Both the position numbers and the translations under genes were made by a program. 64,000 nucleotides of DNA from NCBI RefSeq assembly GCF_016026235.1, contig NZ_CP065613.1. One strand, written 5' to 3'. The stretch comes from Escherichia coli (GTDB lineage: Bacteria > Pseudomonadota > Gammaproteobacteria > Enterobacterales > Enterobacteriaceae). Shown piece after piece: positions 11,544 through 17,651 of the stretch (its first letter is position 1; every line of letters begins with the position of its first letter). The notes beneath the pieces were generated by a model. The model ran no database searches and was not told the DNA's origin. It saw only the letters and a list, made by a program, of their open reading frames with translations.

Positions 11544-11664
11544 ATACTTTGGCTGACATTTTTTTCCCTTAAATTCATCTGACTTACGCATAGTGATAAA
11601 CCTCTTTTTCGCAAAATCGTCATGGATTTACTAAAACATGCATATTCGATCACAAAATGTCATA

Positions 11665-11676
11665 GTTAACGTTAAC
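11665..11676. promoter_or_regulatory. Putative CscR (LacI-family) operator, palindrome GTTAACGTTAAC (copy 1)
   Basis: Perfect 12-bp palindrome centred on CG in the cscA-cscK divergent control region. Confidence 0.5.
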
Positions 11677-11727
11677 ATTTGTGATATTCATCGCATTATG
11701 AAAGTAAGGGACTTTATTTTTATAAAA

Positions 11728-11739
11728 GTTAACGTTAAC
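11728..11739. promoter_or_regulatory. Putative CscR operator, palindrome GTTAACGTTAAC (copy 2)
   Basis: Second identical palindrome 63 bp from the first, 35 bp upstream of the cscA ATG. Confidence 0.5.
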
Positions 11740-11773
11740 AATTCACCAAATTTGCTTAACCAGGATGATTAAA

Positions 11774-13207
11774 ATGACGCAATCTCGATTGCATGCGGCG
11801 CAAAACGCACTAGCAAAACTTCATGAGCACCGGGGTAACACTTTCTATCCCCATTTTCACCTCGCGCCTCCTGCCGGGTGGATGAACGATCCAAACGGCC
11901 TGATCTGGTTTAACGATCGTTATCACGCGTTTTATCAGCATCACCCGATGAGCGAACACTGGGGGCCAATGCACTGGGGACATGCCACCAGCGACGATAT
12001 GATCCACTGGCAGCATGAGCCTATTGCGCTAGCGCCAGGAGACGATAATGACAAAGATGGGTGTTTTTCAGGTAGTGCTGTCGATGACAATGGTGTCCTC
12101 TCACTTATCTACACCGGACACGTCTGGCTCGATGGTGCAGGTAATGACGATGCAATTCGCGAAGTACAATGTCTGGCTACCAGTCGGGATGGTATTCATT
12201 TCGAGAAACAGGGTGTGATCCTCACTCCACCAGAAGGAATCATGCACTTCCGCGATCCTAAAGTGTGGCGTGAAGCCGACACATGGTGGATGGTAGTCGG
12301 GGCGAAAGACCCAGGCAACACGGGGCAGATCCTGCTTTATCGCGGCAGTTCATTACGTGAATGGACTTTCGATCGCGTACTGGCCCACGCTGATGCGGGT
12401 GAAAGCTATATGTGGGAATGTCCGGACTTTTTCAGCCTTGGCGATCAGCATTATCTGATGTTTTCCCCGCAGGGAATGAATGCCGAGGGATACAGTTACC
12501 GAAATCGCTTTCAAAGTGGCGTAATACCCGGAATGTGGTCGCCAGGACGACTTTTTGCACAATCCGGGCATTTTACTGAACTTGATAACGGGCATGACTT
12601 TTATGCACCACAAAGCTTTGTAGCGAAGGATGGTCGGCGTATTGTTATCGGCTGGATGGATATGTGGGAATCGCCAATGCCCTCAAAACGTGAAGGCTGG
12701 GCAGGCTGCATGACGCTGGCGCGCGAGCTATCAGAGAGCAATGGCAAACTCCTACAACGCCCGGTACACGAAGCTGAGTCGTTACGCCAGCAGCATCAAT
12801 CTATCTCTCCCCGCACAATCAGCAATAAATATGTTTTGCAGGAAAACGCGCAAGCAGTTGAGATTCAGTTGCAGTGGGCGCTGAAGAACAGTGATGCCGA
12901 ACATTACGGATTACAGCTCGGCACTGGAATGCGGCTGTATATTGATAACCAATCTGAGCGACTTGTTTTGTGGCGGTATTACCCACACGAGAATTTAGAC
13001 GGCTACCGTAGTATTCCCCTCCCGCAGCGTGACACGCTCGCCCTAAGGATATTTATCGATACATCATCCGTGGAAGTATTTATTAACGACGGGGAAGCGG
13101 TGATGAGTAGTCGAATCTATCCGCAGCCAGAAGAACGGGAACTGTCGCTTTATGCCTCCCACGGAGTGGCTGTGCTGCAACATGGAGCACTCTGGCAACT
13201 GGGTTAG
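11774..13207 (+). CDS. cscA: CscA sucrose-6-phosphate hydrolase / invertase (GH32)
   Basis: ORF MTQSRLHAAQNALAKLHEHRGNTFYPHFHLAPPAGWMNDPNGLIWF... with the GH32 WMNDPNG motif. Confidence 0.95.
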   Translation: MTQSRLHAAQNALAKLHEHRGNTFYPHFHLAPPAGWMNDPNGLIWFNDRYHAFYQHHPMSEHWGPMHWGHATSDDMIHWQHEPIALAPGDDNDKDGCFSGSAVDDNGVLSLIYTGHVWLDGAGNDDAIREVQCLATSRDGIHFEKQGVILTPPEGIMHFRDPKVWREADTWWMVVGAKDPGNTGQILLYRGSSLREWTFDRVLAHADAGESYMWECPDFFSLGDQHYLMFSPQGMNAEGYSYRNRFQSGVIPGMWSPGRLFAQSGHFTELDNGHDFYAPQSFVAKDGRRIVIGWMDMWESPMPSKREGWAGCMTLARELSESNGKLLQRPVHEAESLRQQHQSISPRTISNKYVLQENAQAVEIQLQWALKNSDAEHYGLQLGTGMRLYIDNQSERLVLWRYYPHENLDGYRSIPLPQRDTLALRIFIDTSSVEVFINDGEAVMSSRIYPQPEERELSLYASHGVAVLQHGALWQLG

Positions 13208-13214
13208 CATAATA

Positions 13215-14210
13215 TCAGGTGGAACAACGGATCAACAGCGGGCAAGGGATCCGCGTCACACTTCCCCCTTCACGACCTTCAATAATATGCAATGCAGCTT
13301 CCCGCCCGATAATGTCATGTGGAAGCTGAATTGTGGTCAGCGGCGGTAAAAACAGATGCCCGACACCAACCAGATTATCAAAGCCCATTACGGCGACATC
13401 CTGCGGGATACGTACCCCCTTCGCCAGGAGAACCTGATAAGCCACAAAGGCTGCGCGATCGTTACCACATATCAGAACATCAAAATCTGGTTTGCCCGAT
13501 TTGAAGTGGTCATTGAGTAAACTTGCGAGATCGGTGTAGTGATCATCACCTGTTGCCATGTGAAATTGTTTCACCTCAGCCAGATCTCGTCCAGCATCAC
13601 GCCAGGCCTGCTCAAATCCCTGCCGACGATACCCCGTTGCCAACGCACTTTCCGGTAGCCAGAAGCATAACGGTTGACGATAGCCCGCCGCGAGCAAATG
13701 CTGTGTTGATTCATATTGTGCAGTGTAATCATCAGGGATATAACTGGGTAACGCTGGGTCATCCGCCACACAGTTAGCCAATACAATATTTTCACCATAC
13801 AGAGACTCAGGTAGCGTGATATGTCGCAGCCCCATTGTAGTATAGATAATGCCATCCGGACGGTGGGCAAGCAGCTGACGTGCCGCGCGGGCAGCGTCAT
13901 CTTCAGAAAAAATATTGATTAAAAAACTATTCCAGCCGAACTCGCTGGCGGTTTGCTCAATGGCAAGCAGAATATCAACAGAGAAAGGAGTGGTAGCCGT
14001 GTCCTGCGCCAGCACGGCGAGAGTCGACGGCTTACGTCCTTGAGCGCGCATCTTACGGGCGGAAAGATCAGGAACATAATTCAGGGTCTGGATTGCCTGC
14101 AATACGCGGTCACGCGTTGCAGGACGCACAGATTCTGCATTATGCATCACCCGGGAGACTGTCATCATCGACACTCCCGCCAGGCGTGCGACATCCTTTA
14201 ATGAAGCCAT
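13215..14210 (-). CDS. cscR: CscR sucrose operon repressor (LacI family), 331 aa
   Basis: ORF trimmed to MASLKDVARLAGVSMMTVSRVMHN... (N-terminal HTH of LacI type). Confidence 0.9.
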   Translation of the reverse strand: MASLKDVARLAGVSMMTVSRVMHNAESVRPATRDRVLQAIQTLNYVPDLSARKMRAQGRKPSTLAVLAQDTATTPFSVDILLAIEQTASEFGWNSFLINIFSEDDAARAARQLLAHRPDGIIYTTMGLRHITLPESLYGENIVLANCVADDPALPSYIPDDYTAQYESTQHLLAAGYRQPLCFWLPESALATGYRRQGFEQAWRDAGRDLAEVKQFHMATGDDHYTDLASLLNDHFKSGKPDFDVLICGNDRAAFVAYQVLLAKGVRIPQDVAVMGFDNLVGVGHLFLPPLTTIQLPHDIIGREAALHIIEGREGGSVTRIPCPLLIRCST

Positions 14211-14440
14211 ATCCAAGCCGTTTGCCGTAAAACGGGCACTGTAGCAGAAACAGACGTCACTGGCGAGATCCAACGCCCTATCACCTGTCACGGCAATACA
14301 ATAAAAAATAACAATAATTGCCGAATAATTGTACCCAATTCCGCCTCTGTTCTCGCCAACGAGTAACCATATAGGCAAGTAAGTAAAACATGCCAACTGG
14401 CATCGCCAACCTGGAGAAGAAAATATAAATATGGATCATT

Positions 14441-14659
14441 GTGCTGCCGCTGTATCCCGACATCAGCCCGGAAATTATTGCGATTGCTATCGGTTCAGGT
14501 GCAATTGGCTGCACGATCGTTACGGACTCGCTTTTCTGGCTGGTGAAACAATATTGCGGCGCTACGCTCAATGAAACATTTAAATACTATACGACAGCGA
14601 CATTTATCGCTTCAGTCGTCGCTCTGGCGGGCACATTCCTGCTGTCATTTATCATCTAA
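14441..14659 (+). pseudogene. dsdX: dsdX remnant: only the C-terminal ~72 codons of the D-serine permease (GntP family)
   Basis: Frame opens right after a stop and reads ...[71 protein letters not shown], immediately upstream of dsdA. Confidence 0.8.
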
Positions 14660-14676
14660 GCGCAAAGAGACGTACT

Positions 14677-16005
14677 ATGGAAAACGCTAAAATGAACTCG
14701 CTCATCGCCCAGTATCCGTTGGTAAAGGATCTGGTTGCTCTTAAAGAAACCACCTGGTTTAATCCTGGCACGACCTCATTGGCTGAAGGTTTACCTTATG
14801 TTGGCCTGACCGAACAGGATGTTCAGGACGCCCATGCGCGCTTATCCCGTTTTGCACCCTATCTGGCAAAAGCATTTCCTGAAACTGCTGCCACTGGGGG
14901 GATTATTGAATCAGAACTGGTTGCCATTCCGGCTATACAAAAACGGCTGGAAAAGGAATATCAACAACCGATCAGCGGGCAACTGTTACTGAAAAAAGAT
15001 AGCCATTTGCCCATTTCCGGCTCCATAAAAGCACGCGGCGGGATTTATGAAGTCCTGGCACACGCAGAAAAACTGGCTCTGGAAGCGGGGTTGCTGACGC
15101 TTGATGATGACTACAGCAAACTGCTGTCTCCGGAGTTTAAACAGTTCTTTAGCCAATACAGCATTGCTGTGGGCTCAACCGGAAATCTGGGGTTATCAAT
15201 CGGCATTATGAGCGCCCGCATTGGCTTTAAGGTGACAGTGCATATGTCTGCTGATGCCCGGGCATGGAAAAAAGCGAAACTGCGCAGCCATGGCGTTACG
15301 GTCGTGGAATATGAGCAAGATTATGGTGTTGCCGTCGAGGAAGGACGTAAAGCAGCGCACTCTGACCCGAACTGTTTCTTTATTGATGACGAAAATTCCC
15401 GCACGTTGTTCCTTGGGTATTCCGTCGCTGGCCAGCGTCTTAAAGCGCAATTTGCCCAGCAAGGCCGTATCGTCGATGCTGATAACCCTCTGTTTGTCTA
15501 TCTGCCGTGTGGTGTTGGCGGTGGTCCTGGTGGCGTCGCATTCGGGCTTAAACTGGCGTTTGGCGATCATGTTCACTGCTTTTTTGCCGAACCAACGCAC
15601 TCCCCTTGTATGTTGTTAGGCGTCCATACAGGATTACACGATCAGATTTCTGTTCAGGATATTGGTATCGACAACCTTACCGCAGCGGATGGCCTTGCAG
15701 TTGGTCGCGCATCAGGCTTTGTCGGGCGGGCAATGGAGCGTCTGCTGGATGGCTTCTATACCCTTAGCGATCAAACCATGTATGACATGCTTGGCTGGCT
15801 GGCGCAGGAAGAAGGTATTCGTCTTGAACCTTCGGCACTGGCGGGTATGACCGGACCTCAGCGCGTGTGTGCATCAGTAAGTTACCAACAGATGCACGGT
15901 TTCAGCGCAGAACAACTGCGTAATACCACTCATCTGGTGTGGGCGACGGGAGGTGGAATGGTGCCGGAAGAAGAGATGAATCAATATCTGGCAAAAGGCC
16001 GTTAA
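14677..16005 (+). CDS. dsdA: DsdA D-serine dehydratase (PLP-dependent)
   Basis: 442-aa [47 protein letters not shown]... Confidence 0.95.
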
Positions 16006-16112
16006 TAACGTTTCAACGCAGCATCGCCATCCTTTCCCTGGGTGAGCGATGCTGCCGATGGCGCAGACTTAAGATCCCCAGTCTTACCCGCTATAACCCC
16101 CTGCTTTTACCA

Positions 16113-17651
16113 TCACCCAACGCCTTTCGCTGTAAACGGCGGTTTCGCAAACCACACCAAAACCGTAAGTAAGATAAAAGCAATAGCCGCCATACGGAAA
16201 ATCTCATTTGCAGAAATAGAAAGTGACTGCTGGGTTATTTCATTATTAATTTCATTAAGAACTCCTGAAAGCGAACCATAGTATTTATCCATAATTTGTG
16301 ACGATGAATTAAACACGGGGTTAAATTGATCGATGGTTGCTGTCAACTGACTATGGTGTAACGATTCGCGTCGTCCCCACAGCGTCATTGTCAACGACGT
16401 ACCAACGGATCCTGACAAGGTACGAAAAAAATTACTCATACTCGAGGCATTGGCAAATTTATTATCTGGCAAGCCTGAAAACGAAATCGTTGTTAAGGGT
16501 AAAAAGAAACAGGCAACGGCGAATCCCTGAAAAAACTGCGGCAAAATGATACCTGTAAAATCAATCGTTGGCATAAATGTCACAGAACGCCAGTAATAGC
16601 AAACCGCATACATCAAAAAACTAAATGTCACCAACACCCGCATGTCAATTTTGTTGCCATAACGTCCTATCAAAGGCGAAATCAATAGTGGCATGATGCC
16701 GATGGGCGCATAAGCAAGTCCGGCCCATATCGCATTATACCCCATCGTTTCCTGGAGTAACTGCGGCATAAGGACTATCGCTCCAGAGTAAAATAAATAC
16801 GCGCAGGTGATACTCACAATACCAATGGTGAAATTACGGGACTTAAACAAACTGAGGTCAAGAATCGGGTTCTCTGAGGTCGACTCCCAAATGACTAAAG
16901 AGATCAGAGAAATAACTGATACTACTGTTAATATTATTATTGTACTCGAGTTGAACCAATCCAGATCGCGCCCTTTATCAAGCATAATTTGCAAGCCACC
17001 AACACCGAGCACTAACAGGGTCAGTCCTGGTAGATTCATTTTGACCGGTGAAGTCTCAGTTTCTCTTCCTTTAAGTAAGGTTAAGCATAATGTCAGGACG
17101 ATAATCCCCATAGGGACATTGATTAAAAATATCCAACCCCAGCTAAAGTTATCGCAAATATATCCGCCTAATATCGGCCCACATATCGGAGCGATAATCA
17201 CGGTCATTGACCATAATGCCAGAGCAAATGTTCTTTTTTCTGGTGGATAATTCCTTAATAATAAACTCTGTGACAGTGGAATTAACGGCCCTGCCATTAA
17301 CCCCTGAACGACTCTAAAAAATATCAGCACATCAAGATTGGTCGATAAACTACACATTAATGAAGACAGCGAAAAAAAAGTGACTGAAAGTAAAAATAAC
17401 CTTAATTCGCCTATTCTTTGTGCCAGCCTGCCGGTAACAGGGATCGCAATGGCATTTGCTACGCCAAACGAGGTGATAACCCAGGTGCCTTCGTCTGTTG
17501 ATGCTCCCAGAAAGCCAGATATTGTCGGTATTGCGACGTTAGAAATAGTGGAATCCAACATTTGCATAAACGTCGCTAATGACAATGCAATAGTGACGCA
17601 CCATAACGTCCCACCGGTTAATGGTGCCGGAGTTGATTTAGTGATTGCCAT
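16113..17651 (-). CDS. emrY: EmrY multidrug efflux MFS transporter (14-TMS, EmrB-like)
   Basis: 512-aa membrane ORF MAITKSTPAPLTGGTLWCVTIALSLATFMQMLDSTISNVAIPTISG... Confidence 0.9.
   Translation of the reverse strand: MAITKSTPAPLTGGTLWCVTIALSLATFMQMLDSTISNVAIPTISGFLGASTDEGTWVITSFGVANAIAIPVTGRLAQRIGELRLFLLSVTFFSLSSLMCSLSTNLDVLIFFRVVQGLMAGPLIPLSQSLLLRNYPPEKRTFALALWSMTVIIAPICGPILGGYICDNFSWGWIFLINVPMGIIVLTLCLTLLKGRETETSPVKMNLPGLTLLVLGVGGLQIMLDKGRDLDWFNSSTIIILTVVSVISLISLVIWESTSENPILDLSLFKSRNFTIGIVSITCAYLFYSGAIVLMPQLLQETMGYNAIWAGLAYAPIGIMPLLISPLIGRYGNKIDMRVLVTFSFLMYAVCYYWRSVTFMPTIDFTGIILPQFFQGFAVACFFLPLTTISFSGLPDNKFANASSMSNFFRTLSGSVGTSLTMTLWGRRESLHHSQLTATIDQFNPVFNSSSQIMDKYYGSLSGVLNEINNEITQQSLSISANEIFRMAAIAFILLTVLVWFAKPPFTAKGVG

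Follow-up and report, generated by a model that had tools for sequence, protein, structure and literature searches.

An intact dsdA gene beside the csc-for-dsdCX replacement at argW in Escherichia coli, and what could transcribe it

A complete D-serine deaminase gene, dsdA, is found in the 64,000-nucleotide stretch of Escherichia coli DNA analysed here (the window) next to the tail end of its permease gene, dsdX, and with its activator gene, dsdC, missing, which raises the question of what now drives its transcription. The locus is an example of the classical csc-for-dsdCX replacement at argW, already known from descriptions published between 1979 and 2006, and we consider it very probable that this argW-csc/dsd polymorphism left dsdA as an intact, promoterless and effectively silent orphan that can be reactivated. 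The question of its transcription is no longer open, having been experimentally addressed in 2020 for the same junction in O157:H7; silence and reactivation are carried over here from that junction, and by analogy the present lineage would be expected to behave in the same way. The window dsdA brings nothing new in principle and is a matter of reading a well-known polymorphism correctly. What is specific to the window is an IS4 element that cuts cscKB off from their promoter, three substitutions in DsdA (M87I, A392T and Q228H) and a hint of constraint on dsdA.

Architecture of the csc-dsdA locus

The features between the left edge of the variable island and its right flank, with the evidence for each, are the following:

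7372..7446, plus strand: argW, tRNA-Arg (anticodon CCU), a recombination and integration hotspot and the left edge of the variable island (ARAGORN; a tRNA-Arg is at the same place in FDAARGOS_943)
7888..9135, minus strand: cscB, sucrose:H+ symporter, 415 aa (NCBIfam TIGR00882, 586.7 bits; annotated in relatives as oligosaccharide MFS transporter or cscB)
9207..10117, minus strand: cscK, fructokinase (NCBIfam NF006957, 471 bits, match from profile position 15)
10118..11543, plus strand: IS4, 1426 bp, with its transposase at about 10202-11530 (BLAST against FDAARGOS_943; NCBIfam IS4 transposase, 303.7 bits)
11556..11773: divergent cscK-cscA control region (pattern search for CscR operators)
11774..13207, plus strand: cscA, sucrose hydrolase (invertase), in the same orientation as dsdA (NCBIfam TIGR01322, 479 bits; the corresponding place in L019 has a 477-aa gene call)
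13215..14210, minus strand: cscR, LacI-family repressor of csc (NCBIfam LacI-family matches; 331-aa CDS in relatives)
14211..14441: csc-island spacer of 231 bp, with the cscR 5' region, up to the dsdX breakpoint
14441..14659, plus strand: dsdX remnant, the last 72 codons (K-12 residues 374-445) with a GTG start, a pseudogene fragment
14677..16005, plus strand: dsdA, D-serine ammonia-lyase, 442 codons, ATG start (TIGR02035, 811.5 bits)
16113..17651, minus strand: emrY, conserved right flank, convergent with dsdA (NCBIfam EmrB-family match; emrY in all relatives)

The order and orientation of cscB, cscK, cscA and cscR between argW and the shortened dsdX are the published ones, in agreement with the annotation of relatives, and cscR and cscA stand tail-to-tail with their stop codons 7 bp apart. 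On the downstream side of dsdA, emrY is followed by emrK and evgAS, as seen from open reading frames, profile matches and the annotation of relatives.

With a K-12 dsdC-dsdX-dsdA query, BLAST homology begins exactly at window position 14442, in dsdX codon 374, and runs at 99.08% identity over 1733 bp, placing the breakpoint between csc island and dsdX at 14441/14442, while the first 373 dsdX codons, the dsdC-dsdX intergenic region and dsdC gave no match in the 64-kb window. The 72-aa product covers only positions 374-445 of the 445-position DsdX model PRK09921 (146 bits, against a cutoff of 618); what is left of the full-length 445-residue permease is its C-terminal tail alone, and RefSeq annotates this remnant in relatives as a pseudogene ('D-serine transporter DsdX, incomplete, missing N-terminus'). 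In the 64 kb, tblastn with DsdC gave one match only, an HTH similarity of 60 residues at 58852-59031. The LysR gene at 58171-59070 was ruled out as DsdC, being a different LysR regulator (PRK09986, 532 bits). The anatomy proposed by the first-pass annotation was in this way confirmed: dsdA is a complete 442-codon ATG frame on the plus strand (14677-16005) that matches the full TIGR02035 profile, the gene upstream of it is a 72-codon permease tail, dsdC has neither a BLAST nor a tblastn counterpart in the 64-kb window, and the csc genes upstream are supported by profile matches for cscR, cscA, cscK and cscB.

Distribution of the replacement and precedents for a silent dsdA

Of 5426 complete E. 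coli genomes, 2639 cover at least 80% of the 9.9-kb csc-dsdX'-dsdA-emrY block, and for a 400-bp junction query centred on the breakpoint the same coverage threshold (at least 80%) is reached in 2687 of them, O157:H7 included. K-12 dsdC is present in 2734 of the 5426, at 2936 places. Compared as totals, and not genome by genome, the 2687 junctions and 2734 dsdC genomes add up to 5421 of 5426, which suggests an almost clean either/or split. Among the matches listed, all 20 junction-type genomes carry a single copy of the dsdX tail. We aligned the junction of the window with those of 11 csc-type genomes picked across the identity range and from diverse backgrounds, O157:H7 included, and observed the identical breakpoint, ending in GGATCATTG on the csc side and continuing with TGCTGCCGCTG on the dsdX side, in 12 of 12 loci. 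One shared breakpoint points to a single ancestral event, which would by now have spread over much of the species.

In this event, one ancestral recombination would have swapped cscB-cscK-cscA-cscR for dsdC, the dsdC-dsdX control region and the first 373 dsdX codons. The lost control region would have held the DsdC/CRP-dependent dsdXA promoter, and dsdA would have survived because it lies beyond the breakpoint. Deprived of its sole strong inducible promoter and of its activator, dsdA would have become an orphan, effectively silent, and the cell is predicted not to grow on D-serine and to be sensitive to it. The gene may nevertheless constitute a latent resource, since loss of cscR by deletion, with cscAp or another promoter brought alongside, would switch it on.

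Published work on csc-type strains agrees with this scenario. In O157:H7 EDL933 the sucrose locus substitutes dsdC and part of dsdX at the argW hotspot, a replacement that the same paper credits to Jahreis (2002), Moritz and Welch (2006) and a 1979 report; dsdA was present in 1561 of 1591 genomes, and wild-type EHEC and EPEC showed no growth on D-serine and grew with plasmid-borne dsdA (Connolly, 2015; PMC4366372). The wild-type dsdA of EHEC O157:H7 was termed a 'silent' or 'previously nonfunctional' deaminase, and gfp fusions gave 63-134 RFU in the wild-type context and 2001 and 257 RFU in deletion contexts, the value of 2001 RFU belonging to a cscR deletion that fuses cscAp to dsdA (O'Boyle, 2020; PMC7486766). 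Spontaneous D-serine-tolerant mutants had deletions of 1,120 bp or 5,637 bp, by which cscR was removed and cscAp or z3622p was brought upstream of dsdA, and dsdA mRNA was up 33-fold in a deletion mutant (O'Boyle, 2020; PMC7486766). A 2026 study found D-serine use to be strictly tied to the dsd configuration, the two configurations being typed by triplex PCR on cscR, dsdX and dsdA (PMC13054288).

The window shares with O157:H7 EDL933/TUV93-0 the gene order and orientation, the breakpoint at dsdX codon 374, the 442-codon dsdA and the downstream emrY. Its 400-bp junction query is 95% identical to O157:H7; in the alignment with O157:H7 F7386, through which the junctions were compared, the window is without a 12-bp cscR-leader segment, ACGAAATTCTCG, and has several SNPs there too. 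The DsdA proteins of the two differ at seven residues, and IS4 at cscK codon 2 is a feature of the window. E. coli W and EC3132 carry the same csc replacement between argW and dsdX. For E. coli W, the genome paper reports the same csc insertion with loss of D-serine use (PMC3032704), dsdX and dsdA are regarded as pseudogenes or dispensable (PMC6599523), and evolution on sucrose led to a 1403-bp deletion in which cscR, dsdX' and part of dsdA were lost (PMC6599523). Between the window and K-12, which like UPEC CFT073 has dsdCXA, identity is 99% over the dsdA coding sequence, the ribosome-binding region and the 235 bp immediately upstream; unlike these two strains, the window has neither dsdC nor the DsdC/CRP-dependent promoter nor 373 of the dsdX codons, so that induction by D-serine is impossible.

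The choice between csc and dsd at argW is recognised as determining niche. Strains positive for dsdCXA (UPEC, NMEC and Crohn's-associated isolates) use and tolerate D-serine. In csc-type strains, to which most EHEC/EPEC and many commensals belong, sucrose is used, and D-serine acts as an inhibitor that represses type III secretion as well. The source strain is csc-type, is predicted to be D-serine-negative and is possibly sucrose-negative through IS4. A silent but intact dsdA matters in this context because single deletions can reactivate it and shift the niche range.

The DsdA enzyme and constraint on its gene

Residues 9-438 of DsdA align with positions 1-431 of the 431-position TIGR02035 profile, at more than twice the cutoff score (811.5 against 368.25 bits), and the protein is identical to PDB 3SS7 at 439 of 442 residues. 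The ribosome-binding region is the same as in K-12. The exact window protein was found in about 31 assembly blocks; its context was csc-type in 5 of the 5 inspected, with IS4 in the 3 of 3 that reach far enough upstream, and these occurrences in csc-type contexts mean that the allele belongs to a real clone.

It could be argued that dsdA of this lineage is starting to decay, with its frame still open and the enzyme impaired by lineage-specific substitutions, which we regard as unlikely. Three of the eight nucleotide differences from K-12 alter the protein (M87I, Q228H and A392T, relative to the K-12/PDB 3SS7 protein), and two of these alter positions conserved in full-length homologs from other genera, position 87 being Met in 113 of 113 and position 392, located six residues past the EPSALAG segment, being Ala in 111 of 113; the same 113 homologs have Glu or Gln at position 228. 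Among 19 E. coli sequences, I87 and T392 are common to the window and its closest relative, FDAARGOS_943, only, and H228 is confined to the window. Another csc-type genome, NT1N25, has a frameshifted dsdA. However, all three substitutions are conservative, the PLP-binding Lys118 (invariant among 113 homologs) is kept, the glycine-rich phosphate-binding loop GVGGGPGG is identical to that of PDB 3SS7, and three changes are too few to prove relaxed selection.

The opposite reading seems to us improbable as well. In it, purifying selection would maintain the orphan dsdA in the csc carriers, roughly half of E. coli, because expression under some condition lets it clear low levels of D-serine; as candidates, sucrose could induce read-through from cscAp, or transcription could begin weakly and without DsdC in the dsdX tail. 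Coverage of the gene reaches at least 80% in 5377 of the 5426 complete E. coli genomes. It was intact in all 12 csc-type copies first sampled, the frameshifted NT1N25 being one further csc-type genome, and it is annotated as intact in 11 of 12 csc-type RefSeq loci inspected, NT1N25 being the exception. Retention alone is weak proof of function, because the useless dsdX remnant is retained too. Variants private to csc-type genomes comprise about 8 nonsynonymous and 22 synonymous changes in dsdA (omega about 0.11; binomial p = 1e-8 against neutrality) and 6 nonsynonymous and 4 synonymous changes in the dsdX remnant (omega about 0.5, compatible with neutrality). When dsdA is set against the remnant, the difference has the expected direction but does not reach significance (Fisher p = 0.12), and ancestral polymorphism and recombination confound it. 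Pairwise dN/dS is 0.069 among csc-type dsdA copies and 0.035 among dsdCXA-type copies, values that are confounded by the large share of dsdA variation held in common with dsdCXA-type strains (ancestral polymorphism, recombination). We did not accept purifying selection on dsdA after the replacement as proven, given the confounded dN/dS and the p value of 0.12 for the private-variant contrast, and take the substitution pattern as a hint that constraint on dsdA may continue in csc-type genomes. An entirely useless dsdA would be expected to drift, and to that extent the apparent constraint counts against the gene being a silent orphan.

Candidate sources of dsdA transcription

In a consensus scan of 13100-16200 on both strands, no sigma-70-like site was found, against 3.3 expected by chance. 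A position-weight scan, built on approximate consensus frequencies and read against a background of about 4.9 sites of at least 6 bits per kb in the window, gave no promoter-like site above background in 14211-14676, the 466 bp before dsdA; its top site (6.7 bits) has a -10 that overlaps the dsdA ATG. A strong constitutive promoter in the remnant or the spacer was rejected, both scans having yielded nothing above background, and a very weak one may still be present there. The first-pass annotation had called for promoter prediction upstream of dsdA, to which these scans answer with none; among the sources of transcription that it listed, a constitutive promoter in the remnant finds no counterpart in them, and its last option, none, if taken to include very little, agrees with the 63-134 RFU of the O157:H7 fusions at the same junction. 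A structured or known RNA upstream of or within dsdA was also considered and discarded, as Rfam (E <= 1) returned a spurious snoRNA of 19 bits for a gathering threshold of 37.

Direct action of CscR on dsdA can be set aside. The CscR operator palindrome, GTTAACGTTAAC, occurs at exactly two places of the 64 kb, 11665-11676 and 11728-11739, both of which belong to the cscK-cscA control region, upstream of cscA. This confinement agrees with the published negative result, in which CscR expressed in UPEC left dsdCXA unrepressed, indicating that it is not a direct regulator of dsdA (O'Boyle, 2020; PMC7486766).

A weak, DsdC-independent start in the dsdX tail, giving low constitutive deaminase that would suffice for selection, is a rather improbable alternative. 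An element 115 bp upstream of dsdA, conserved at 114 bp between EHEC and UPEC, was described as a promoter element (O'Boyle, 2020; PMC7486766), and among 19 E. coli sequences we counted 3 variable sites in the 125 bp before the dsdA ATG and 13 in the distal 110 bp (p = 0.0075); within dsdA itself, any 125-bp window has a minimum of 6. A weak extended -10-like motif, TGa-AACAAT, ends at 14552, but it scores 3.7 bits, far under the background matches, and the consensus scan is empty. A conserved nucleotide element in the 125 bp was rejected, because third-codon-position identity in other genera (Citrobacter, Klebsiella and Kluyvera) is alike in the proximal (0.29) and distal (0.28) parts, which speaks against such a start too, as do the low reporter output of the wild type and the accumulation of D-serine by wild-type EHEC. 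The low-diversity 125 bp match the remark on conservation made for the 115-bp element (O'Boyle, 2020; PMC7486766), and near -115 of dsdA we observed a single, very weak motif.

The sucrose genes bear on the next alternative. IS4 is inserted at cscK codon 2, where ATG TCA GCC of an IS4-free relative has become ATT ACA GCC, and it parts the cscK ATG and promoter from the body of the gene, so that cscKB are cut off from their promoter. The insertion is bordered by a 12-bp target duplication, 10106-10117 being the same as 11544-11555, which is the duplicated form of positions 8307-8318 of the FDAARGOS_943 locus (L001). FDAARGOS_943 (labelled E. coli) is the nearest complete genome, 99.9% identical and without IS4, and the cscK-cscA control region (11556..11773) is identical to that of the IS4-free relative, with the cscA promoter side and both operators intact. 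Seven less similar genomes (96-98.8% identical) gave full-length matches to the query in which an IS4-family transposase is annotated; the one inspected, CE0021a, carries the insertion at the same point as the window. Judged from this arrangement, sucrose uptake, and hence induction, is probably lost through IS4; in E. coli W, by contrast, cscKB are working and the strain grows on sucrose. A comparable state is reported for the csc genes of Shigella, in which cscA and cscR are intact and IS1, IS3 or IS4 is found in cscK or cscB (Stephens, 2024; PMC11251922).

Read-through from the cscR side, the first source proposed in the initial annotation, has the wrong direction: cscR lies on the minus strand and points away from dsdA, and its transcripts cannot extend into dsdA. 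Of the upstream genes, cscA alone runs in the direction of dsdA; its stop codon is 7 bp from that of cscR, and any read-through from it must therefore cross about 1 kb of antisense cscR. In a conditional form of read-through, which we hold to be very unlikely, sucrose would lift CscR repression and transcripts from cscAp would cross cscA and antisense cscR into dsdX'-dsdA, making dsdA a sucrose-co-induced gene kept by selection. The shared strand of cscA and dsdA, the 7 bp between cscA and cscR and the lack of a terminator-like hairpin on the plus strand between 13207 and 14624 would permit this, and the substitution pattern of dsdA appears constrained; dsdA read density follows that of cscA in the O157 deletion mutant (O'Boyle, 2020; PMC7486766). 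The one weak terminator-like hairpin on the plus strand in the scan of 13100-16200, at 14625-14644, is also found in K-12, where dsdX and dsdA are co-transcribed. Against conditional read-through, the wild-type cscAp-to-dsdA fragment gave background-level gfp, measured without sucrose (O'Boyle, 2020; PMC7486766), and the RNA of about 1 kb would be untranslated, antisense and moderately C-rich, with a C/G ratio of 1.2-1.4 over most of its length, a good substrate for Rho termination, the same stretch also favouring collision with cscR transcription. With IS4 severing cscKB from the promoter, sucrose uptake and induction would probably be disabled in this lineage, and the loss of sucrose induction would leave cscAp repressed and read-through minimal, which makes this alternative even less likely.

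That the window dsdA is still activated from elsewhere in the genome, by a dsdC or by a second dsdCXA copy, is extremely unlikely: some E. coli do have two dsdCXA copies (2936 dsdC places in 2734 genomes), K1 strains being named in the title of Moritz and Welch (2006), but such a copy would be of no help because the cis target of DsdC, the dsdC-dsdX intergenic promoter, is itself deleted, as seen by BLAST, the counts of junction-bearing and dsdC-bearing genomes are almost complementary, one dsdX-tail copy is seen in each of the 20 junction-type genomes among the matches listed, and the only LysR gene of the window similar to DsdC belongs to a different family. The rescue by a distant dsdC that had been put forward as a counter-possibility thus falls.

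The reading that we prefer, dsdA as an intact, promoterless orphan that can be switched on, resembles the situation of the cryptic bgl operon, an intact catabolic system that is silent in the wild type and is activated by upstream rearrangements. The bgl operon is silenced by H-NS and has its own promoter present; unlike bgl, dsdA has had its promoter and activator physically deleted.

Variation in dsdA and directly upstream

Three amino acid substitutions in DsdA (dsdA, 14677–16005, plus strand) are lineage-specific:

14935–14937, plus strand: codon 87, M87I
15358–15360, plus strand: codon 228, Q228H
15850–15852, plus strand: codon 392, A392T

Among 113 homologs from other genera, positions 87 and 392 vary hardly or not at all. 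The final 125 bp before dsdA (14552–14676) contain three variable sites among 19 E. coli sequences and are, within this species, less variable than every 125-bp window inside dsdA itself; across Citrobacter, Klebsiella and Kluyvera, no added conservation of synonymous sites was observed in this stretch. At 14546, codon 409 of the dsdX remnant (the last 72 codons of the permease gene) has changed synonymously from AAG to AAA; this substitution, found only in the window and in FDAARGOS_943, the nearest complete genome, converts TGAAGCAAT to TGAAACAAT. The latter is a slightly improved extended -10-like motif, ending at 14552, near the position of the published '-115' dsdA promoter; any effect of this single change on the putative motif is purely speculative.

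The dsdX remnant and dsdA in other genomes

In WP8-S17-ESBL-12 and AF40 (2412–2630 in each locus), both of the csc-type, that is, with csc genes replacing dsdC and most of dsdX, amino-acid-changing substitutions in the dsdX remnant are clustered in its distal part (P376A, I386F and A387T, common to the two genomes, with A389D and G393S additionally present in WP8-S17-ESBL-12), and dsdA is intact in both. The cluster fits a remnant that is decaying neutrally. Loss of dsdA is rare: in the csc-type genome NT1N25 (2501–3828) the gene is frameshifted by the loss of 1 bp, possibly an artefact of assembly, and in BKQWHE (4002–4106) just the last ~105 bp are left, adjoining phage genes.

IS4 in cscK and the cscA–cscR region

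The csc genes of the window are interrupted by an insertion sequence:

10106–11555, including a 12-bp target duplication: IS4 element of 1426 bp, inserted at cscK codon 2

Since this insertion separates cscK-cscB from their own promoter, the csc locus of the window is predicted to be sucrose-negative. IS4 is absent from cscK in FDAARGOS_943, which is 99.9% identical, whereas the full query was matched in seven genomes of lower similarity (96–98.8%), with an IS4-family transposase under each match; in CE0021a, the one of the seven that was checked, the insertion point is identical to that of the window. This distribution suggests either an insertion hotspot or spread via recombination.

In the cscR 5' region, a 12-bp segment (ACGATATTCTCA/G, with a flanking ACG repeat) is missing at 14275/14276, as it is in FDAARGOS_943 and RM9245; it is found in the other nine aligned csc-type loci, and in O157:H7 it reads ACGAAATTCTCG. 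A distinct 13-bp deletion, closer to the junction, is present in one strain, DCE7. The convergent cscA and cscR genes have stop codons just 7 bp apart (13207–13215), leaving no space for an intergenic terminator, and thus each transcript must end within the opposite gene.

Other elements in the window

Between argW and cscB, a short fragment of a DUF4942-domain ORF (7626–7808) is presumably a relic of an element once integrated at the argW hotspot. An IS1 copy (59144–59917), which shares 99.6% identity with the IS1 in FDAARGOS_943, adjoins a LysR-family regulator gene (58171–59070); FDAARGOS_943 carries an extra IS1 near fadL, missing at the matching site of the window (~4180).
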